From NCBI GenBank assembly GCA_028714235.1, contig JAQTMQ010000004.1, positions 1 to 58,063 on the forward strand: a stretch of DNA of 58,063 bases. The letters run 5' to 3'. Of the stretch, positions 2,144-57,589 are shown piece by piece; within the stretch, counting starts at the first letter, position 1; each line of letters begins with the position of its first letter. This DNA is from Candidatus Iainarchaeum sp. (GTDB taxonomy: Archaea; Micrarchaeota; Micrarchaeia; Burarchaeales; Fermentimicrarchaeaceae). Under the pieces are notes generated by a model. That model saw nothing but the letters and a program-made list of their open reading frames with translations. It ran no database searches and was not told the DNA's origin. The position numbers were made by a program, and so were the translations under genes.

Positions 2144-3079
2144 ATGAATGAAATCCGGAAGGATTGCCTGCTCGACCGCTTCGTCATCATCGCGGAGGGG
2201 CGGGGCAGGCGGCCCAACGACTTCGCGCAGCCGCGGCCGAGGCTGAAAGCGGGCGGCGCGTGCTTTTTCTGCCCGGGAAACGAGGGCCTCACCCCGCCCG
2301 AAACCGGGCGCGTCAGCGACCCGAAGGGAAGGTGGCTCGTCCGCAGCTTTTACAACAAGTTTCCCGCGGTTTCCGCGGATTACCCGTGCGCGGGGGGAAG
2401 CCACGAGGTGCTCGTGGAAACGAGGGAGCACGGCAAGCAGATGGCCGACCTCTCCCCAAGGCAAATCCGCCTCGTCCTCGACCTTTGCGCCGAGCGCACG
2501 AGGAAGCTTGAGGCCAACCGCGGGACGAGGTACGTCTCGGTCTTCAAGAACCAGGGCTCGGCGGCAGGCACGTCCCTCCTCCACTCGCACTCCCAAATCC
2601 TCGCGCTCGCGGAAATCCCGCCGCTCGTGAGGCGCGAGGCCGACGCCTTCAGGGAGGCTGTAAAGGAAGGCGGGGAATGCGTTTTCTGCCGCATGGCGCG
2701 CGAGGAGCGGGGAGGCCCTAGAAAAATTTTCGAGGACGAAAACATGCTCGTGCTCGCGCCGTACGCGAGCAGGGCCGCCTACGAGGCATGGTTCGTCCCC
2801 AAGCGGCACGCGCGGAAATTCACCGGCCTCGCCCCCGCGGAAATGGATTCGCTTGCGCTCATGCTCAAGAAAACCCTGCTGCGGCTGAACGCGCTCTTCA
2901 AGTACCCGTCCTTCAACTATTACCTGCATTCCGCCTGCCGCGGCGAAGACTTCCATTTCCACCTGGAGCTTCTCCCAAGGCTCACGGTCTGGGCGGGCTT
3001 CGAGCTCGGGAGCGGCGCGTACATAAACCCGGTTTCGCCGGAAACCGCGGCGCTCCACCTACGCGGGCGCCGGGCCTGA
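2144..3079 (+). CDS. galT: galactose-1-phosphate uridylyltransferase family (GalT/HIT-type hexose-1-phosphate nucleotidyltransferase)
   Basis: CFFCPGNE zinc-knuckle motif and the HSHSQILA (HxHxQ) active-site motif. Start taken at the internal ATG (MNEIRKDCLLDRFVIIAEGRG) behind the TATA box; the track ORF begins at 2024. Confidence 0.75.
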   Translation: MNEIRKDCLLDRFVIIAEGRGRRPNDFAQPRPRLKAGGACFFCPGNEGLTPPETGRVSDPKGRWLVRSFYNKFPAVSADYPCAGGSHEVLVETREHGKQMADLSPRQIRLVLDLCAERTRKLEANRGTRYVSVFKNQGSAAGTSLLHSHSQILALAEIPPLVRREADAFREAVKEGGECVFCRMAREERGGPRKIFEDENMLVLAPYASRAAYEAWFVPKRHARKFTGLAPAEMDSLALMLKKTLLRLNALFKYPSFNYYLHSACRGEDFHFHLELLPRLTVWAGFELGSGAYINPVSPETAALHLRGRRA

Positions 3080-4915
3080 AAAAAACTTTGCGACCACTTT
3101 TGACGGCTCGGCCGAGAGCACGAAGTCGAAGTCTTTCGGGAAGCACTTCCTGTAGTTGCCCCACGCGAAGCGCTCGTCCAGATACACCATGGCCGCGCGG
3201 TCCCTTTCGCTGCGCACGCACCTCCCGGCCGCCTGGATGGACTTGATTACCGCGGGATAGATGTAGCCGTACTCCCATCCCTTCCCCATCCGCGCCTCGT
3301 AATAGTCGATCAGCGACTTGACTTCAACGTCCATCTCCTGCAGCGGCACGCCGGCCATCACCGCGCACTTCATCACGCCGCCCGGGTAGTCGATGCCCTC
3401 GGAAAGGCTTCCGCCCTGCACGCCGCAAAGCGTCGCGCCATCCTCCTCCACGAACCTCTCGAAGAGGCGGCTTACGTCGCGCGGGGGCATGTCCGCGCCC
3501 TGGACGAGCAGGCCGCGGTTCGGGATGAAGGGGAGCACGCTCCTCATCACGTTGAAGGCGGGAAAGAACACGCCCACCTTTCCGGGAGTCGCCCCGATTA
3601 TTCTCGCAATCTCCTTCCCCATCTTCTCGTACTCGGATTCCTGCCTTCGCGTGAACTTGGTCGTGAAGCCGCGCGCGATGACGTTAATCCTGTTGAGCGC
3701 GCTGAAAGGCGAGGAGTACTCCCTCATCACGGCGCGCCTCGCGTCCAGTCCGAGCACGTCGCGGTGCATTTCAAGCGGAACGAGCGTCCCGCTCATGAGC
3801 ACCGCCGCGCGCGCGCTGTTGAGGACGCCCGCGAGCGGGCTCGGGTCAAGGCACCTCTTGGAAAGCGAGTAGCCGGCCGGCCCCGCCTTCCGGAGAATCC
3901 GGACGCTGGAAGAATCCGTTTCGTTCCACGCGTGCAGGAAAACGGAGAGCCTCAGGAGCGCGCTCACGGGCTTCCCCTGCTTTTCGATGAACTCCACGCC
4001 CAAGTCCTCGAAAGCGGTTGCGAGCGCCCCAATCTCGCCCGGAAGCAATGGCAGCAGCTCCTCCCGCGACGCCTCGGCCTCGCCCGCTTTCCCAAGCCTC
4101 GCTTCCGCCCACCCGTCAAACCCGGCGGAAAGCGCGCGCAGGTCAAGCGGGCTTCCGAGCGCTTTCGCCTCCTTCGCGGCGCGCGAAAGCATGAGCGAGT
4201 TCGCGCTCGCGGACAGGTATTCCCTGATGCGCGGCGCGACGTTGTGCGCCTCGTCCACGATGACCACGAGCTCCCCGAGCCGCTTGCCCGTCTTGCGCAG
4301 GAACGCGTCCCTGATGCCCGGGACGAACAGCTGCGAGTAGTCCGCGATTATCACGCCGGACCTTTCGCCCAGCCGCAGCGCGAACTCGTACCCGCACATG
4401 CCCTTCCCGCGGGCGAGCGCGGCAGCCTCGTGGTGGTGGAGCGCGCCCTTGACCGATTTAGCGAGCCCTTCGAACGCGGCAGAGGCCCGCGCCTCCTGCG
4501 CCCTTCCGAAGCCGCGCGTGTTCGCGTAAAACGGGCAGGCCGCGTTCTTGCGCCTCTTCTGGCACGCGAGGTAAAACTCTTCGCCGCGCGCGCGGGAAAG
4601 CGCGGGGTCGGCGCACATGTGCTTTTTCCCTACGACGTCCGTTCCCTTCAGCTCAAGCCCGTATTTTTGCACGATTCCGTTCACGACCTCGACCGCAATC
4701 CCGTGCTGCGACGTCTTGGGCGTGAGGAAGAGGACGGGCGCGCCCTCCTTTTGCGCGAAAGTGAGCGCCGCGCCAAGCGCGGCGTCCGTCTTCCCGAGGC
4801 CGGTTGGCGCGTGGCACAGGATTATTTTTCCCTGGGAAAGGGCTTCGCAAACGTCCTTCACGAGCGCGTCCTGCTGTGGCCTCACGGACGCGTGCCTGAA
4901 ATAGACTGAAACCAC
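3059..4915 (-). CDS. xpd: XPD/Rad3-family Fe-S DNA helicase
   Basis: Walker A HAPTGLGKTDAAL, DEAH box VVIVDEAHNV, and four Cys between them (C..C..C..C) typical of the XPD 4Fe-4S domain. The longest ORF reaches 5011. A GTG at 4915-4913 about 23 nt downstream of the TATA at 4938-4946 is the more likely start. Confidence 0.85.
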   Translation of the reverse strand: MVSVYFRHASVRPQQDALVKDVCEALSQGKIILCHAPTGLGKTDAALGAALTFAQKEGAPVLFLTPKTSQHGIAVEVVNGIVQKYGLELKGTDVVGKKHMCADPALSRARGEEFYLACQKRRKNAACPFYANTRGFGRAQEARASAAFEGLAKSVKGALHHHEAAALARGKGMCGYEFALRLGERSGVIIADYSQLFVPGIRDAFLRKTGKRLGELVVIVDEAHNVAPRIREYLSASANSLMLSRAAKEAKALGSPLDLRALSAGFDGWAEARLGKAGEAEASREELLPLLPGEIGALATAFEDLGVEFIEKQGKPVSALLRLSVFLHAWNETDSSSVRILRKAGPAGYSLSKRCLDPSPLAGVLNSARAAVLMSGTLVPLEMHRDVLGLDARRAVMREYSSPFSALNRINVIARGFTTKFTRRQESEYEKMGKEIARIIGATPGKVGVFFPAFNVMRSVLPFIPNRGLLVQGADMPPRDVSRLFERFVEEDGATLCGVQGGSLSEGIDYPGGVMKCAVMAGVPLQEMDVEVKSLIDYYEARMGKGWEYGYIYPAVIKSIQAAGRCVRSERDRAAMVYLDERFAWGNYRKCFPKDFDFVLSAEPSKVVAKFFSGPAPA

Positions 4916-33831: not shown

Positions 33832-34137
33832 CTACGTGAGCTCCACGCTTTCCTTGAGAACCTCCCTGAAGAACGCCCTGCCCTTCACCTGCTCGAACTC
33901 TGCCGGGGTGTAGGGAAGGACGTCAACGCGCGCCCCGGCAGGCGCGAGTTCCGACACGTCGGTGACGCGGTCAAAGAACCGCTTCGCGAAGCCCGCTATG
34001 ACTATCAAGTCGTAATCGCTTTTTTCGTTTACGTCCCCCCTTGCCCGGCTGCCGAAGAGGATGACCCGCGCGCCAGGATAACGCGCGCGGAGCTTTTTCA
34101 CGAAGGGCTTCAGAAAGCGCCCTTTTTCTCCACCCAT
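33832..34137 (-). CDS. MNT-type nucleotidyltransferase (antitoxin-like partner of HEPN)
   Basis: ILFGSRARGDVNEKSDYDLIV is the GSxxRG..D.D polymerase-beta nucleotidyltransferase motif. It overlaps the HEPN gene. Confidence 0.8.
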   Translation of the reverse strand: MGGEKGRFLKPFVKKLRARYPGARVILFGSRARGDVNEKSDYDLIVIAGFAKRFFDRVTDVSELAPAGARVDVLPYTPAEFEQVKGRAFFREVLKESVELT

Positions 34138-34424
34138 GCTATCACCGTGCTCGCATGCCGGATGCACTCCTGCGCGTCCTCGGGAGTGAAAAACTCGTGC
34201 GGCGAGTCCGCAGGTATGCTTCCGGGATACCTCGTCGAAATGTAGAAATGATCCAGGCGCTTCGCTTGCGCGAGTCCGTTCGCGCTTTTATCGAGCCTGC
34301 CTGCAAGGCCCACCAATTCGTAAACCGAGTGGGTGAGAACTTCCCGCTTGCCATGCAGGTCGAACTTCGCCTGCTTAAGCCAGCGCGCGAATTCAGACCG
34401 GTTGTTGTCGGTTCCCATGGCCAA
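34110..34424 (-). CDS. HEPN-domain protein, shortened
   Basis: FARWLKQAKFDL.. and ..LDHFYISTRYPGSIP..FTPEDAQECIRHASTVIAWVEKK match the first and last HEPN helices. The segment between them looks about 35 aa shorter than I expect for this family. Confidence 0.65.
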   Translation of the reverse strand: MAMGTDNNRSEFARWLKQAKFDLHGKREVLTHSVYELVGLAGRLDKSANGLAQAKRLDHFYISTRYPGSIPADSPHEFFTPEDAQECIRHASTVIAWVEKKGAF

Positions 34425-49727: not shown

Positions 49728-49817
49728 GATGCGTTATACCAAAACGCCTTTAAAAACGGTTGCCCGCCCGGGCGCGGGACTGCAACAATTAAAAGCCGCC
49801 CCGCGCAACCAAGATAC

Positions 49818-50036
49818 ATGGCAGTCCTGCCAGAGCTTGAGCCCCGCCATTACACCTACGTCGGGTTCGCGTTCTCGTTCCTCGGCATGGTCCTCGCCCT
49901 CGCCACCATCCTCGCGGTCAACAACGTCCTCCTCTCCGGCTGGCCCTGGTTCCCCATCTCCGTGGCGGCGATAATCGCCCTCGGCATCGCGACGCTCTCC
50001 TTCCACAGGATGGGCACGAAAAGAATCGCGCTCTGA
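49818..50036 (+). CDS. small two-TM membrane protein (hypothetical)
   Basis: This is the 3' end of an otherwise antisense track ORF. The ATG at 49818 lies about 25 nt downstream of ATTAAAAG. Sequence MAVLPELEPRHYTYVGFAFSFLGMVLALATILAV...ISVAAIIALGIATLSF gives two clean hydrophobic helices. Confidence 0.4.
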   Translation: MAVLPELEPRHYTYVGFAFSFLGMVLALATILAVNNVLLSGWPWFPISVAAIIALGIATLSFHRMGTKRIAL

Positions 50037-50116
50037 ACGCGTCCGGCCGCGGCCCGGGCTCCGCGCCCCATGGTTTTGCGCGCGCGCACGTGCGCGTTCA
50101 GGGCGCCTTAGCCGTT

Positions 50117-50125
50117 TTTAAACAG
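50117..50125 (+). promoter_or_regulatory. TTTAAACAG promoter word upstream of topA
   Basis: 30 nt upstream of the ATG at 50147. Confidence 0.45.
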
Positions 50126-50146
50126 GAGCGGGCATAACGCTTGCCC

Positions 50147-53955: not shown

Positions 53956-54762
53956 GTGTTGCGGATGGAAATTGAACTGGATTTCACCGAAACCGCGCAG
54001 CAGAACGCCGCCCGGTTTTACGACGAGGCCAAGCGCCTCCGCGAGAAGGCGCGCCGCGCCGGGAAGGCCATCGCGGAAACCGAGGAAAAGCTCAGGCGCG
54101 CGAAAGAAAAAGCGGAAGCCGGCGCGAGCGCCCAGCAGCCCCCTGCCGCGCGCGTCAGGCGCGAAAAGCAGTGGTTCGAGCGCTTCCGCTGGTTTTACAC
54201 GAGCGGCGGCAGGCTCTGCATCGCGGGAAGGGACGCGAAGCAAAACGAGGCCGTGGTCCTGCACCGCCTCGAGCCAGGCGACCTCTTCTTCCACGCGGAC
54301 ATCCACGGCGCGCCCGCGACCGTCCTGAAGGGCGGCGCACAAGCCCCGCGAAAAGAGAAGGAGGAGGCGGCGCAGTTCGCCGCAAGCTACTCTTCGGCCT
54401 GGAAGCTCGGCTCCGCCTCGGTTGACGTTTACGCGGTAAATCCGGAGCAGGTTTCAAAGCGCGCCGAATCCGGCGAATCGATGGGGAAAGGCGCGTTCGT
54501 GATACGCGGCGAGCGCGAGTGGTTCAGGAACACGCCGCTCGGCCTGGTCCTCGGTGCCGGAAGCGAGGGAGTGGAATCCGCTCCCGCCTCGCGCGGGCCC
54601 GGCGGGATGAAATCGTCCGCGGAAATCCGGCCCGGAGGGCTTGAGAAAGGCGAGGCCGCGAAAAGAATCGCGCGCGCCCTCGGCGGGAACGCCTCGCCTG
54701 ACGAAATCCTCCAGGCCCTCCCGAGCGGGAACTCCTCTATCTCCCGGCCCTTCCCCGCTTGA
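53956..54762 (+). CDS. NFACT-R (DUF814) RNA-binding-domain protein lacking the NFACT-N domain
   Basis: Coiled-coil start (AQQNAARFYDEAKRLREKARRAGKAI), then WFERFRWFYTSGGRLCIAGRDAKQNEAVV...GDLFFHADIHGAPATVLK, the core NFACT-R motif. An ATG at 53965 is an alternative to the GTG at 53956. Confidence 0.75.
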   Translation: MLRMEIELDFTETAQQNAARFYDEAKRLREKARRAGKAIAETEEKLRRAKEKAEAGASAQQPPAARVRREKQWFERFRWFYTSGGRLCIAGRDAKQNEAVVLHRLEPGDLFFHADIHGAPATVLKGGAQAPRKEKEEAAQFAASYSSAWKLGSASVDVYAVNPEQVSKRAESGESMGKGAFVIRGEREWFRNTPLGLVLGAGSEGVESAPASRGPGGMKSSAEIRPGGLEKGEAAKRIARALGGNASPDEILQALPSGNSSISRPFPA

Positions 54763-55054
54763 AGGGAAAGCCCTTCTTCCCCCCGCACGCGCACGAATAG
54801 ACGACTTTCCCCGTTTTCGGGTCAAGGCGCGCCTTCACGTTGAACCCGTGCACCCACGCGGTTCCGCACGCCTTGCAGAACCTTCTCTTCGATTCCGGGG
54901 AAAGCCTCACCCTGAACCGCGTCCCGAGCCTCCTCGCAAGCGAAACGTAGCGCGCGCTCCTCGCGGGATTCCTTTTCGCCTCCTTTTCCGCGAAGCCGAG
55001 GAGAATCCCAATCCTCTCGCGCACCACCCCCTTGACTCCTCCCGTCGATTCCAT
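54737..55054 (-). CDS. rnp4: RNase P protein component 4 (Rpr2/Rpp21 family)
   Basis: RERIGILLGFAEKEAKRNPARSARYVSLARRLGTRFRVRL..KRRFCKACGT..CACGG gives the helical N-terminus plus zinc ribbon typical of Rpr2. Confidence 0.8.
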   Translation of the reverse strand: MESTGGVKGVVRERIGILLGFAEKEAKRNPARSARYVSLARRLGTRFRVRLSPESKRRFCKACGTAWVHGFNVKARLDPKTGKVVYSCACGGKKGFPFKRGRAGR

Positions 55055-55084
55055 CAAACCCACTCTTCCGCGAGCAAGGACGAA

Positions 55085-55259
55085 TGGGCCCGGGGAGAGG
55101 TTCAGCGCATCGCTGAAAGCCGCTTTTCGCGGCAGCGAAAACGCGTTTGAACTCCCGACCTACGGCTGACTCAGAGCGCTGAACCTTCCGGCTTTCACGA
55201 CTTGTACCGGAAGGCGTCGTATAAGACCGCCGCTCTAGACCGGCCTGAGCTACGGGCCC
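55085..55259 (-). tRNA. tRNA-Ile, anticodon UAU, with two introns (exons 55259-55220, 55167-55146, 55098-55085)
   Basis: Hand fold of the reverse strand. Acceptor GGGCCCG/CGGGCCC plus discriminator A; D arm GCTC/GAGC. T stem GGGAG/CTCCC; the spliced T loop is TTCAAAT; variable loop AGGTC. Anticodon stem GCGGT/GCCGT, closed by two G-U pairs; spliced loop CTTATAA. Intron 1 (55219-55168, 52 nt) lies at 37/38: 4-bp helix CTTA/TGAG with bulges TAC and TCA. Intron 2 (55145-55099, 47 nt) lies at 59/60: clean BHB with helix TTCA/TGAA, bulges AAC and CCT, inner helix GCG/CGC. The mature length is 76 nt. No CCA is encoded. Confidence 0.8.
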
Positions 55260-55289
55260 TTGCGTGCGTAGTATTGCCCAATAAACCAT

Positions 55290-55297
55290 TTTTAAGC
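55290..55297 (-). promoter_or_regulatory. GCTTAAAA promoter word (reverse strand) upstream of the tRNA
   Basis: The reverse-strand GCTTAAAAA ends 29 nt before tRNA position 1. The same word precedes both paralogue genes at 57006..57013 and 57561..57568. Confidence 0.45.
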
Positions 55298-55311: not shown

Positions 55312-55965
55312 ATGGGCAAGGTGGTTTATTTGAAGCTTTCAAGCCTGGCTTTCCTCTCCGTGCTCGTTTCCGCGCCGGTTCTCGCCTGCATCGTGATGGG
55401 CGGCGGCTCGGTTTACCTGAACAAGCCCAACGTCACGGTCAACATTTCCGAGATAACCTCCAACGCGAACCTCTCCTACAACTATACCGCCGTGCAGGGC
55501 GGCGTCGCCTTCCGCTCGCACCACAACGGCTCGCTCGTCGCCGTGCTCGCGCGCGATTCCTACGGCTGGTCGCTCAGAATCGGCGTCCCTGAAGGCGAAA
55601 GCGGCCCTGCGGACGCAAATTACAGCGAGGCGGTCTGGACCGAGCTAGACTGGCTCTGGAACCACAAGGTCGTGAACGGCACGACGCCCGGCGACGTTTC
55701 CGAAATCGTGGACCTGCTCGCCAACAGCACGGCAAGCTACGTTTACTGGAAGGACGGGAACTGGACCGCGATTCAGAACAACTGCTACCCGGACGGCACC
55801 TGCGCGAGGTGCGGCCCTGCGGGCGCCGCGCTGAACGCGACGCTCCCCCCGCTCGCGCTCGACCTCCCCGAAAAGACGGACGACGAGAAAATCAACGAGT
55901 GCGTTGCAGGCCTCGGCCTAGTCCTGCTGTTTCCGCTGGGCTTCGCGCTCCGCAGGCAGGCATGA
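55312..55965 (+). CDS. secreted, sequon-dense small surface protein with a C-terminal TM anchor
   Basis: Signal peptide LSSLAFLSVLVSAPVLAC (possible lipobox-like VLAC). Ten N-x-S/T sequons in 217 aa (NVT, NIS, NLS, NYT, NGS, NYS, NGT, NST, NWT, NAT). C-terminal GLGLVLLFPLGFALRRQA. Confidence 0.65.
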   Translation: MGKVVYLKLSSLAFLSVLVSAPVLACIVMGGGSVYLNKPNVTVNISEITSNANLSYNYTAVQGGVAFRSHHNGSLVAVLARDSYGWSLRIGVPEGESGPADANYSEAVWTELDWLWNHKVVNGTTPGDVSEIVDLLANSTASYVYWKDGNWTAIQNNCYPDGTCARCGPAGAALNATLPPLALDLPEKTDDEKINECVAGLGLVLLFPLGFALRRQA

Positions 55966-55986: not shown

Positions 55987-56979
55987 TCACGCCCCGCCGT
56001 AGCCGACCCTGCGCGCAATCTCCTGCCCTTCCTTGGACTCGAGGAAGTATTCCACGACGTGCCCGCCGTAATCCCTCGCAACCATTTTTCGCATGAGCAA
56101 CCGCATCCTTTCGGGATTGAGCATGGCCGCGTGCGACAGCTTTTCAAACGCGTCCTCCCTGAGCTTCTTCCCGGGATCCTCCCTTCTCGGGTCCAGCGCG
56201 TTCATGTACGCCTTCGCGAGCCCCATGCTGTTGAGGAGCAATTCCGCCTCCCGAATCTCGTTCAGCCCGAGCGCAAGCGTTTCCCCGCTTACCACGAGCC
56301 CCCTTTCGCGCATGAACCCCTCTTTCGCGTCCGCGCGCACCCGGGCAAGCGCCCTCCTCGCCTCGTCGCTCGTGCCCGCCTCGGCCGCGGCCAGCATCCC
56401 TTCAAGCCTTGCCCAGTGAGGGCTTTCCTTGAACTTCCCCACGGTTTCGCTGCAGATGGAGCTCTTTTCCAAATCCGCGATTATCTCCCTGACCTTGGAT
56501 GCGTCCAAGCGGGCGAGGAACGCGAGGCGCCCGAAAGCCGCTTCCTTTACCGCCTCCTCCGCCTTCCTCTCGGCTTCGGTCAGGCCGAACTTCTGGGACG
56601 CGATGGCATCAATTTCCGGGAAAAAATACGGGAACAGCCTCAAGGGCCCGAGGCGTCCCTTTATCTCATGCACGCGGATGGAAAGCGCCTCCCTGCTCGG
56701 GAGCAGGTCGTTCTTCAGCAGGTTGGCGAGGCGCACCCTGCATTCCTCCGTGTCGTCAAGGCCAAGCGACGATAGGACGTCTCCAGGCCTGACCTGTTCG
56801 GGGAACTTGAATTCCCTCCGTTTCCCCCCGCGCGCCTTTTGGCCGGAAATCCCGCCGCTTTCCCCGGTTTTGCCGTTCCCGGCAGCCACGTCGAGCGGCT
56901 TTATCCCCCCGGCCATCTCCCGGACCTCGCGCCGCTGCACAGGCTCGGGCATTTTCTTTCTTTCCGCCACCCCTTCCAT
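55987..56979 (-). CDS. hypothetical protein, paralogue A (shares its C-terminal domain with 57046..57537)
   Basis: The track ORF extends to the GTG at 57021. The ATG at 56979 lies 25 nt downstream of GCTTAAAAG and is preferred. The C-terminus KLREDAFEKLSHAAMLNPERMRLLMRKMVARDYGGHVVEYFLESKEGQEIARRVGYG aligns with paralogue B. Confidence 0.6.
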   Translation of the reverse strand: MEGVAERKKMPEPVQRREVREMAGGIKPLDVAAGNGKTGESGGISGQKARGGKRREFKFPEQVRPGDVLSSLGLDDTEECRVRLANLLKNDLLPSREALSIRVHEIKGRLGPLRLFPYFFPEIDAIASQKFGLTEAERKAEEAVKEAAFGRLAFLARLDASKVREIIADLEKSSICSETVGKFKESPHWARLEGMLAAAEAGTSDEARRALARVRADAKEGFMRERGLVVSGETLALGLNEIREAELLLNSMGLAKAYMNALDPRREDPGKKLREDAFEKLSHAAMLNPERMRLLMRKMVARDYGGHVVEYFLESKEGQEIARRVGYGGA

Positions 56980-57045
56980 CGCGCCCTTACTCCCGCCGTC
57001 CAGGCTTTTAAGCATTGGCACCAGCCGGAAACCCGCCCGCGAAGA

Positions 57046-57537
57046 CTACGCGCCGTTCCCCGCCCCGCGCCCGTGGCGGGGCCCCTTCTTCCGGTCAATC
57101 TCTTCAAGCAGCTCTTCGGGTCCGAAGCCTATCGCCCGCGCAATCCTTTCCCCCCCCTCCGTTTCGAAAAAGTAGCGGACCCGGTTGTTGTACTCTCCCA
57201 CCGCCGCCATCCTCATCACCATCCCCTTGAACCTTTCAGGCGACGCTTCGGCGGCGCGCAACAGCTTCCCGAACGCCTTCTCCTTCACCCGCTCGTCAAT
57301 CCTCCCTATCTGCCGGGAGTCAAGCACTCCCATGAGCTTCAGCACCGGCTCGAAGTTCGCGAGGAGGTACTCGGTGTACGCTTCTTCCCCGCGAATCAAT
57401 GCAATCGTTCCACGACCTTTCTCGAGCTGCGCCCGTTTTCTCCCGCCAGGGCCCCGCTTCCCGCCCTCGCCAAGAATCGCCGGGCCCGCGCTTCCCATCC
57501 CCGGCCAAGCTTCCTTTCCCGCCTTGCTTTTCTGCAT
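57046..57537 (-). CDS. hypothetical protein, paralogue B
   Basis: The track ORF starts at 57558, which directly abuts the TATA-like word. The ATG at 57537 lies 22 nt downstream of it. Shared domain: RVKEKAFGKLLRAAEASPERFKGMVMRMAAVGEYNNRVRYFFETEGGERIARAIGFG. Gly/Lys/Arg-rich N-terminus. Confidence 0.6.
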   Translation of the reverse strand: MQKSKAGKEAWPGMGSAGPAILGEGGKRGPGGRKRAQLEKGRGTIALIRGEEAYTEYLLANFEPVLKLMGVLDSRQIGRIDERVKEKAFGKLLRAAEASPERFKGMVMRMAAVGEYNNRVRYFFETEGGERIARAIGFGPEELLEEIDRKKGPRHGRGAGNGA

Positions 57538-57589
57538 GCGTTCCTTCCCGCTGTCCATACTTTTAAGCCTTGACGCCGAAACCTAGTTC

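Follow-up and report, generated by a model that had tools for sequence, protein, structure and literature searches.

A predicted tRNA-Ile(UAU) gene with introns at 37/38 and 59/60 on a Micrarchaeota contig

The locus at positions 55085 to 55259 raises the question of whether 175 nt that match no tRNA gene as they stand encode a working isoleucine tRNA, and if so, which anticodon it carries and where its introns lie. The window, meaning the whole stretch of DNA that was analysed, is an entire contig of 58 kb with 63% G+C. Its predicted genes are of the archaeal housekeeping type: XPD, Rad50, EF-1β, HMG-CoA reductase, topoisomerase I, CTP synthase and AglB/STT3, along with a large glycosylation cluster. 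The CTP synthase is 75-80% identical to metagenome proteins and 64-68% identical to proteins from Candidatus Micrarchaeota, Micrarchaeia or Anstonellaceae. Among named proteins it is closest to those of the Micrarchaeota, which fits the ARMAN-type lineage suggested in the original prediction. The NCBI name of this phylum is now Microcaldota, within the kingdom Nanobdellati, to which the DPANN lineages belong. The locus is very probably a genuine tRNA-Ile(UAU) gene with two introns, predicted to be functional and to decode AUA in this member of the Micrarchaeota (DPANN).

Gene architecture and predicted splice motifs

As originally predicted, a cloverleaf is obtained from the 175-nt locus only after two segments are removed. 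The gene, whose strand the prediction did not give, lies on the minus strand and is divided as follows.

55259-55085, minus strand: complete pre-tRNA-Ile(UAU) gene, 175 nt; G1 is 55259 and the discriminator A73 is 55085; CCA is not encoded
55259-55220, minus strand: exon 1, 40 nt, GGGCCCGTAGCTCAGGCCGGTCTAGAGCGGCGGTCTTATA; acceptor 5' strand, D-arm, anticodon stem 5' strand and loop positions 32-37 (CTTATA)
55223-55221, minus strand: anticodon TAT, within exon 1
55219-55168, minus strand: intron 1, 52 nt, position 37/38, BHB
55167-55146, minus strand: exon 2, 22 nt, AGCCGTAGGTCGGGAGTTCAAA; A38, anticodon stem 3' strand, variable loop AGGTC, T-stem 5' strand GGGAG and T-loop positions 54-59 (TTCAAA)
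55145-55099, minus strand: intron 2, 47 nt, position 59/60, strict hBHBh'
55098-55085, minus strand: exon 3, 14 nt, TCTCCCCGGGCCCA; T60, T-stem 3' strand CTCCC, acceptor 3' strand CGGGCCC and discriminator A

Joined, the three exons form a sequence of 76 nt, GGGCCCGTAGCTCAGGCCGGTCTAGAGCGGCGGTCTTATAAGCCGTAGGTCGGGAGTTCAAATCTCCCCGGGCCCA, with a complete cloverleaf that ARAGORN calls tRNA-Ile(tat). Read directly from this sequence, the spliced tRNA has U8, A14, G18G19, a G15:C48 pair, G26, U33, T54-A58, G53-C61 and A73, and its variable loop is 5 nt long. The body is of the Ile type, with a GGGCCCG acceptor and A73, and is identical to Micrarchaeota tRNA-Ile(UAU) genes at 69-72 of 76 positions (72 with L144 and 69 with L095). 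The acceptor and T-stem halves that flank the introns are perfectly complementary.

The outer helix of intron 1 is the anticodon stem. The central helix contains four pairs between C32-U33-U34-A35 (55225-55222) and TGAG (55173-55170). The bulges are TA|C (55221-55219), corresponding to U36-A37|C, and TC|A (55169-55167), corresponding to UC|A38. The inner helix is made up of a G-C and an A-U pair, a bulged C, and then a G-C and a C-G pair. In the local minimum-free-energy fold, a 2x3 internal loop is drawn in place of this helix, and its first two pairs are retained in 92.9% of orthologue cells. With two base pairs plus a bulged C, it is best termed relaxed or minimal, which agrees with the weak inner helix of the original prediction. 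The BHB motif appears in 2e-3 of trials with shuffled introns, and 97.7% of its cells are paired across 28 orthologues. As its exon strand does not vary, the central helix can change on one side only. Such changes keep the pairing in the orthologues, where U33 faces G or A and U34 faces A or G. The partners of U33 and U34 are A and G in the window (intron strand TGAG), and G and A in most relatives (TAGG).

Intron 1 also contains the predicted 8-bp hairpin, which lies where it had been placed, to the nucleotide.

55214-55207 (CCTTCCGG) with 55191-55184 (CCGGAAGG), minus strand: hairpin of 8 bp with a 15-nt loop; the arms are also given as CCUUCCGG/CCGGAAGG, with a span of 55184-55214

The nearest relatives have a homologous hairpin with compensatory changes. 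The arms are CCATCCG/CGGATGG in L002 and L004, and CCGTGCGG/CCGCACGG in L144.

In intron 2, the T-stem (GGGAG/CUCCC, 5 bp) forms the outer helix. The central helix pairs TTCA (55151-55148) with TGAA (55104-55101) over 4 bp, the bulges AA|C (55147-55145) and CC|T (55100-55098) have 3 nt each, and the inner helix GCGT/GCGC has 4 bp. The T-loop intron had been described as a textbook helix-bulge-helix-bulge-helix, and it is indeed a strict 3-4-3 motif with flanking helices of 5 and 4 bp. Eight junctions that leave a 7-nt T-loop were scored. Only 59/60 gives four central pairs, together with both flanking helices. In 200,000 trials with shuffled introns, the motif occurs at a frequency of 3e-4. 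The minimum-free-energy fold of intron 2 is shifted by one in register, such that G53 pairs with the penultimate C of the intron and not with C61. In this predicted fold one pair is moved and the topology is unchanged.

The two intron positions are geometrically equivalent. At both, a 7-nt loop sits on a 5-bp stem and the intron follows the sixth loop nucleotide, and in the mature tRNA position p-6 pairs with p+2. The tRNA's own stem therefore serves as the outer helix at 59/60 and at 37/38. The original prediction linked 59/60 introns to broad-specificity endonucleases. In the window, the 59/60 motif is a strict hBHBh' and does not by itself require such an enzyme; the relaxed motif is that of intron 1.

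Two further properties of the precursor were recorded. The minimum-free-energy fold of the whole precursor contains no cloverleaf, and local folds of each arm give the BHBs. A C/D-box sRNA within the introns was considered and rejected by eye: each intron contains CUGA, but neither has an RUGAUGA box, and lengths and layout do not fit.

Orthologous genes and T-arm introns

Homologues of the Rpp21 protein encoded next to the tRNA lead to contigs L002-L008. These carry orthologous tRNA-Ile(UAU) genes with a 37/38 intron only (39, 38 or 27 nt), and their T-loop, TTCAAAT, is unbroken. A metagenome scan with the clade's 5' exon yields 32 loci, 30 of which are archaeal. Among the matches listed in a scan of GTDB genomes, three genes from Micrarchaeota MAGs (L066, L095 and L110) are intronless. 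They have CTTATAAGCCGT, and their reading, GTCTTATAAGCCGT, equals the product predicted for splicing of the window gene.

Independently of the folds, both junctions are fixed by a set of approximately 30 orthologues drawn from metagenomes and MAGs. Intron 1 begins and ends with C and its junction is A|A, so that a single junction is compatible with the orthologue comparison. The same is true of intron 2, for which 59/60 is the one compatible junction. The predicted loop CTTATAA after 37/38 splicing, and with it the anticodon UAU, recurs in the intronless orthologues. The T-loop TTCAAAT that 59/60 splicing was expected to restore is found unbroken, as TTCAAAT or TTCGAAT, in the single-intron orthologues. 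Over the cloverleaf of 28 different spliced orthologues, 588 of 588 cells are paired and 13 of the 21 pairs have both-sided changes. Sliding the partners by 1-3 columns lowers the pairing to 26-49%.

The nearest relatives (L144/L152, L002 and L004) have no T-arm intron. In L144/L152, the neighbouring protein is 64% identical to that of the window. A second intron, located in the T-arm, is present in 10 orthologous tRNA-Ile(UAU) genes including that of the window. They fall at three positions.

59/60: window (47 nt) and L105 (97 nt)
58/59: L130, L140, L159, L138, L151 and L153 (35-38 nt)
56/57: L146 (34 nt) and L154 (202 nt)

For each of the 10 introns, there is just one junction that produces a 4-bp central helix with two 3-nt bulges, and splicing there leaves a normal loop. 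By eye, the introns are alike within the 58/59 group and within the 56/57 group, and the window intron is unlike all others. In L105, the adjacent tRNA-Glu(UUC) also has introns at 37/38 and 59/60.

For the tRNA-Ile(UAU) of this clade, the 37/38 intron is read as the ancestral one. T-arm introns have apparently been gained repeatedly, in at least four separate events, at 56/57, 58/59 and 59/60; this is the simplest reading of the series. The 59/60 intron of the window would then be a recent, lineage-specific gain. Large-scale transposition of tRNA introns is described in Thermoproteales and Thaumarchaeota. It was considered here and rejected: neither intron 1 nor intron 2 has a further copy in the window or in the 160 fetched loci, and the window intron thus lacks a second copy in the available sequence.

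Detection by standard tools and alternative readings

ARAGORN makes no tRNA call at the unspliced locus, either by default or with -i at several limits, and reports zero tRNAs in the entire 58-kb window with the intron option on or off. This program, run with introns, had been proposed as a check on the locus. The check is split: the unspliced gene is missed, and the spliced sequence is called tRNA-Ile(tat). Rfam gives no match at the unspliced locus at the gathering score, no match at E<=10 on 450 nt around it, and none at the locus in a search of the whole window at E<=1. The unspliced locus is therefore below the RF00005 gathering threshold (29 bits). With the same tRNA model, the intronless orthologues L066, L095 and L110 score 68-72 bits and the single-intron orthologues L004, L007 and L144 score 53-62 bits. 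The Rfam miss of the window gene is attributable to its insertions and is not counter-evidence to its identity as a tRNA.

A covariance model was built from 27 spliced orthologues, with the window gene left out. Its best match in the window is the exon 1 region (55259-55203, 30 bits, E 6.5e-6). The 3' part of the gene is matched separately and weakly (9.5 bits), and the model does not bridge the two introns together. The second match of this model, at 50011-50068 (17 bits, E 0.019), has no D-loop and was judged to be due to chance. It overlaps the end of an apparent ORF for a small membrane protein with two TM segments on the plus strand.

Four other readings of the locus were weighed. In one, the tRNA is decaying: the 47-nt T-loop insertion remains unspliced, which makes the locus a pseudogene and leaves the single-intron form of the relatives as the only functional one. 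The closest relatives (L144/L152, L002 and L004) do lack the insertion, neither Rfam nor ARAGORN recognises the locus, and it is covered by one assembly. The insertion nevertheless forms a strict 3-4-3 BHB with 5-bp and 4-bp helices at the junction that restores TTCAAAT, an arrangement with a chance frequency of 3e-4. All stems and conserved tertiary nucleotides are intact, ATA codons are frequent on the contig, and in nine further orthologous genes a T-arm intron is present for which a single junction fits a BHB. The ARMAN-2 enzyme cleaves 59/60 introns (PMC3239211). Decay is thus very improbable. Splicing at other junctions, which would produce a different loop or anticodon, is most improbable. 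When intron 2 alone is removed, ARAGORN -i reports a 38-nt intron, a long variable arm and a 90-nt tRNA, and splicing at 60/61 would likewise leave a 7-nt T-loop (TTCAAAC). The ARAGORN solution was rejected; it is not based on a BHB, has a G.G mismatch in the anticodon stem and gives the anticodon TAT regardless. The intronless orthologues are exactly CTTATAAGCCGT, the uninterrupted T-loops of relatives are TTCAAAT or TTCGAAT, and a 4-bp central helix is found at 59/60 alone.

The remaining two readings concern the genome and the assembly. A genome that also has tRNA-Ile(CAU) and TiaS would make the UAU tRNA an accessory decoder of AUA. Neither tiaS, endA nor rtcB is found among the 57 predicted ORFs of the 58-kb contig (Pfam), and this contig has no tRNA-Ile(CAU); as it is only a 58-kb contig, the missing tiaS says nothing about the genome, which leaves room for such redundancy. 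The reading is improbable all the same. ARMAN-2, -4 and -5 combine tRNA-Ile(UAU) with the absence of tRNA-Ile(CAU) and of TiaS (PMC3239211), the same replacement is found in N. equitans and K. cryptofilum (PMC8450103), and tRNA-Ile(UAU) is conserved in every Micrarchaeota-clade locus retrieved. It is also scarcely credible that the locus is a chimera created during assembly, with the join falling within a conserved tRNA. An independent Logan contig from the same organism (L001) does end 30 nt into the tRNA, and tRNAs are frequent break or join points in metagenome graphs. The gene order is, however, the same in L144/L152, the order of tRNA and Rpr2 recurs in many loci, and the acceptor and T-stem halves are perfectly complementary across the introns. 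A genuine tRNA-Ile(UAU) gene with introns at 37/38 and 59/60 is the preferred reading.

Rpp21 linkage, predicted pathway and known systems

The tRNA gene is followed by a gene for an RNase P protein. The features of this region are as follows.

54737-55054, minus strand: Rpr2/Rpp21 RNase P protein gene, 105 aa (PF04032, E 5e-15), directly downstream of the tRNA
55055-55084, minus strand: tRNA-Rpp21 spacer, 30 nt, TTCGTCCTTGCTCGCGGAAGAGTGGGTTTG
55289-55296, minus strand: TATA-like box TTAAAAAT, positions -36 to -29 relative to the 5' end of the tRNA

The PF04032 match scores 56 bits against a cut-off of 29.3, and the alignment with homologues shows four invariant cysteines and also supports the start at the ATG at 55054. 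The spacer had been predicted at 31 nt, and the 30 nt found are taken as a match. As expected from the same prediction, no TATA lies between the tRNA and this ATG: the spacer has no A/T-rich box, and no T run in it exceeds 3. Within the 60 nt upstream of the tRNA, TTAAAAAT is the sole 8-mer made up entirely of A and T. An A/T-rich 8-mer is absent from the tRNA gene itself and from the interval between the tRNA and Rpp21. A comparable all-A/T box, at approximately -38 to -25, is present in most orthologous loci, and TTAAAAAT is a putative promoter.

In L007, L129, L130, L133, L144, L149, L156, L158 and L160, the tRNA is followed by Rpr2 on one strand with gaps of approximately 14-50 nt. In L002-L006, a VWA gene is inserted between the two. 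L144/L152 have the same gene order as the window, with a divergent 217-aa secreted protein, tRNA-Ile(UAU) and Rpr2. The conserved order, along with a sole TATA-like box upstream of the tRNA, makes co-transcription of the tRNA and Rpp21 plausible on the evidence of the DNA. A more doubtful extension is that, in this clade, the tRNA forms the 5' part of the Rpp21 mRNA, which would join a substrate of RNase P to the message for one of its subunits. Processing by RNase P and tRNase Z would then release, and could tune, the expression of Rpp21, forming a feedback loop.

ATA makes up 177 of the 801 Ile codons and is present in 48 of the 57 predicted ORFs. It is common on the contig, so an AUA decoder is needed despite the 63% G+C. 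In the proposed pathway, transcription would start from the TATA-like box approximately 30 nt upstream, probably together with the downstream Rpp21 mRNA. The ends would be trimmed by RNase P and tRNase Z. EndA would cut both BHB motifs after nucleotide 2 of each 3-nt bulge, with the 59/60 site mimicking the geometry of the anticodon loop, and would free the 52-nt intron (37/38) and the 47-nt intron (59/60). An RtcB-type ligase would join the three exons into the 76-nt tRNA, to which CCA would be added. The mature tRNA-Ile(UAU) would decode AUA, and may be the sole AUA decoder.

The original prediction held that a genomic UAU tRNA-Ile is limited to a few lineages such as Nanoarchaeum and Korarchaeum. 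This limit does not stand. Two surveys do describe tRNA-Ile(UAU) as 'nearly absent' from Archaea, with N. equitans and K. cryptofilum as the only cases among 167 and 217 genomes, and report UAU in no DPANN lineage other than N. equitans (PMC6000648; PMC8450103). ARMAN-2, -4 and -5 encode tRNA-Ile(UAU), in genomes where tRNA-Ile(CAU) and TiaS are absent (Fujishima et al. 2011, PMC3239211). Among the matches listed in the GTDB scan, MAGs of Woese-, Pace-, Iain- and Micrarchaeota also have a genomic tRNA-Ile(UAU), usually interrupted by an intron at 37/38, and many CPR and other bacteria encode this tRNA too.

The closest known system is that of ARMAN-2 (Candidatus Micrarchaeum acidiphilum). Its pre-tRNA-Ile(UAU) shares the phylum, isoacceptor, anticodon and 37/38 BHB intron of the window gene, and is cleaved in vitro by an ε2 EndA; the ARMAN-2 genome has no TiaS and no tRNA-Ile(CAU) (PMC3239211). 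The ARMAN-2 tRNA-Ile gene has a single intron of 25 nt, whose motif is strict, whereas the window gene has a 52-nt intron with a weak inner helix and a hairpin, as well as a T-loop intron. Introns are found exactly at 59/60 in ARMAN-2 tRNA-Cys, where the T-loop intron is cleaved in vitro, and at 53/54 and 59/60 in tRNA-Pro(GGG), so that multi-intron tRNAs are known in the lineage (PMC3239211). The tRNA-Cys intron is a relaxed hBH (BHL), in contrast to the strict 47-nt hBHBh' of the window, and the isoacceptors differ. The pairing of 37/38 and 59/60 introns in tRNA-Ile is not described in the text of PMC3239211. The ε2 EndA is encoded by a single gene with two catalytic units and one structural unit. 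This three-unit enzyme of ARMAN-2 has broad specificity and cuts the Ile and Cys substrates in vitro (PMC3239211), which remain standard assay substrates (PMC12397907). By lineage, the organism of the window is likely to have a three-unit ε2 EndA as well.

Other systems share part of this architecture. [quoted passage not shown] These are other phyla with (αβ)2 endonucleases. In N. equitans and K. cryptofilum, a genomic UAU likewise replaces the CAU/agmatidine system, and the Korarchaeum gene also has an intron (PMC6000648, PMC8450103). Both belong to other lineages, and their genes have at most one intron. In yeast tRNA-Ile(UAU), as summarised in the passage of PMC4090602 that cites Szweykowska-Kulinska 1994, a conserved 37/38 intron pairs with the same anticodon and is required for pseudouridines 34 and 36. 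In the window gene, by comparison, U34 and A35 are in the central helix and U36 is in a bulge. The conserved 37/38 intron pairs with U34 and A35 and, by analogy with yeast, may be kept to direct modification of the anticodon. The yeast system is eukaryotic and involves Pus1. Three Micrarchaeota orthologues have no 37/38 intron at all.

Every element of the finding has precedent in the same phylum. New are this gene and its pairing of intron positions, the apparently repeated gain of T-arm introns at three positions in one tRNA, and the conservation of the tRNA-then-Rpp21 gene order. The understanding of AUA decoding and BHB splicing is unchanged, and the value of the gene lies mainly in an annotation correction and in one point in the series of T-arm gains. 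A pipeline based on ARAGORN and Rfam would infer an organism that lacks an AUA decoder, and recognition of the two-intron gene corrects this. The approximately 30 Micrarchaeota-clade loci of one tRNA form a compact natural series in which the gain of archaeal tRNA introns can be studied, and the conserved linkage of tRNA-Ile(UAU) with Rpp21 offers a modest lead, open to testing, on how DPANN archaea express RNase P genes.

Neighbours of the tRNA-Rpp21 locus

The genes on either side of the tRNA-Ile(UAU) gene in the window are listed below; the Rpp21 (Rpr2) gene encodes an RNase P protein subunit.

53956-54762, + strand: NFACT-domain gene, convergent with Rpp21
54737-55054, - strand: Rpp21 gene
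55312-55965, + strand: gene for a 217-aa protein, divergent from the tRNA gene
55987-57021, - strand: ORF with no Pfam matches
57046-57558, - strand: adjacent ORF with no Pfam matches

The NFACT-domain and Rpp21 genes run towards each other, and their 3' ends share 26 nt (54737-54762). The 217-aa protein keeps its position beside the tRNA gene, with 60-64% identity, in three contigs that carry single-intron orthologues (L002, L004, and L144). It has a faint match to Heavy_Cys_CGP, and an N-terminal signal peptide is apparent by eye. Paralogy between the two minus-strand ORFs covers the C-terminal ~100 residues of each, at 36% identity (E 4e-11). In the independent contig of the same organism (L001), this paralogous pair likewise adjoins the secreted 217-aa protein.

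Six other contigs (L007, L129, L133, L149, L158, and L160) share a conserved 14-17-nt spacer between the tRNA and Rpr2 genes, ATGGTTTTTGGATGAG. This spacer includes a T5 run and an upstream reading frame of 4 codons, the stop of which overlaps the Rpr2 ATG. The tRNA-Rpr2 spacer of the window does not contain the element conserved in those six contigs.

T-arm introns and tRNA-Ile(UAU) in other genomes

When BHB-guided splicing at 58/59 is applied to three tRNA-Ile(UAU) genes of the Micrarchaeota clade (L138, L151, and L153), the T-loop is TCCAAAT, which places a C at position 55. A U (pseudouridine 55) is nearly universal at this position. Despite the C55, ARAGORN calls the three spliced products tRNA-Ile.

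Neighbouring tRNA-Ile(UAU) and tRNA-Glu(UUC) genes are found in L105 (CAZENX010000023, ~2946-3330), and both contain 37/38 and 59/60 introns. The T-loop intron of the tRNA-Ile(UAU) gene is 97 nt long. This contig is labelled Methanosarcinales, yet its tRNA-Ile(UAU) gene is of the DPANN type.

A pattern scan of GTDB genome contigs also recovered bacterial tRNA-Ile(UAU) genes. Among the matches listed (L009-L128), such genes are common in CPR/Patescibacteria, Saccharibacteria, Planctomycetes, Chloroflexi, and some Streptomyces, and one (L021) is plasmid-borne. In L044 and L047, a truncated 5' half precedes another tRNA-like sequence that has the same anticodon loop, CTTATA.

Other features of the window

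The 413-nt 'intergenic' stretch at 49728-50140 likely contains an ORF for a small two-TM membrane protein (~49818-50036, + strand). A tRNA covariance model built from 27 spliced orthologues has a hit of 17 bits at 50011-50068, which overlaps the end of this ORF. This hit lacks a D-loop and appears to be a chance match.

Within the sugar-nucleotide and glycosyltransferase cluster lies a pair of genes (33832-34424, - strand) that encode a nucleotidyltransferase (PF01909) and a HEPN protein (PF05168). This pair is a toxin-antitoxin-like module.
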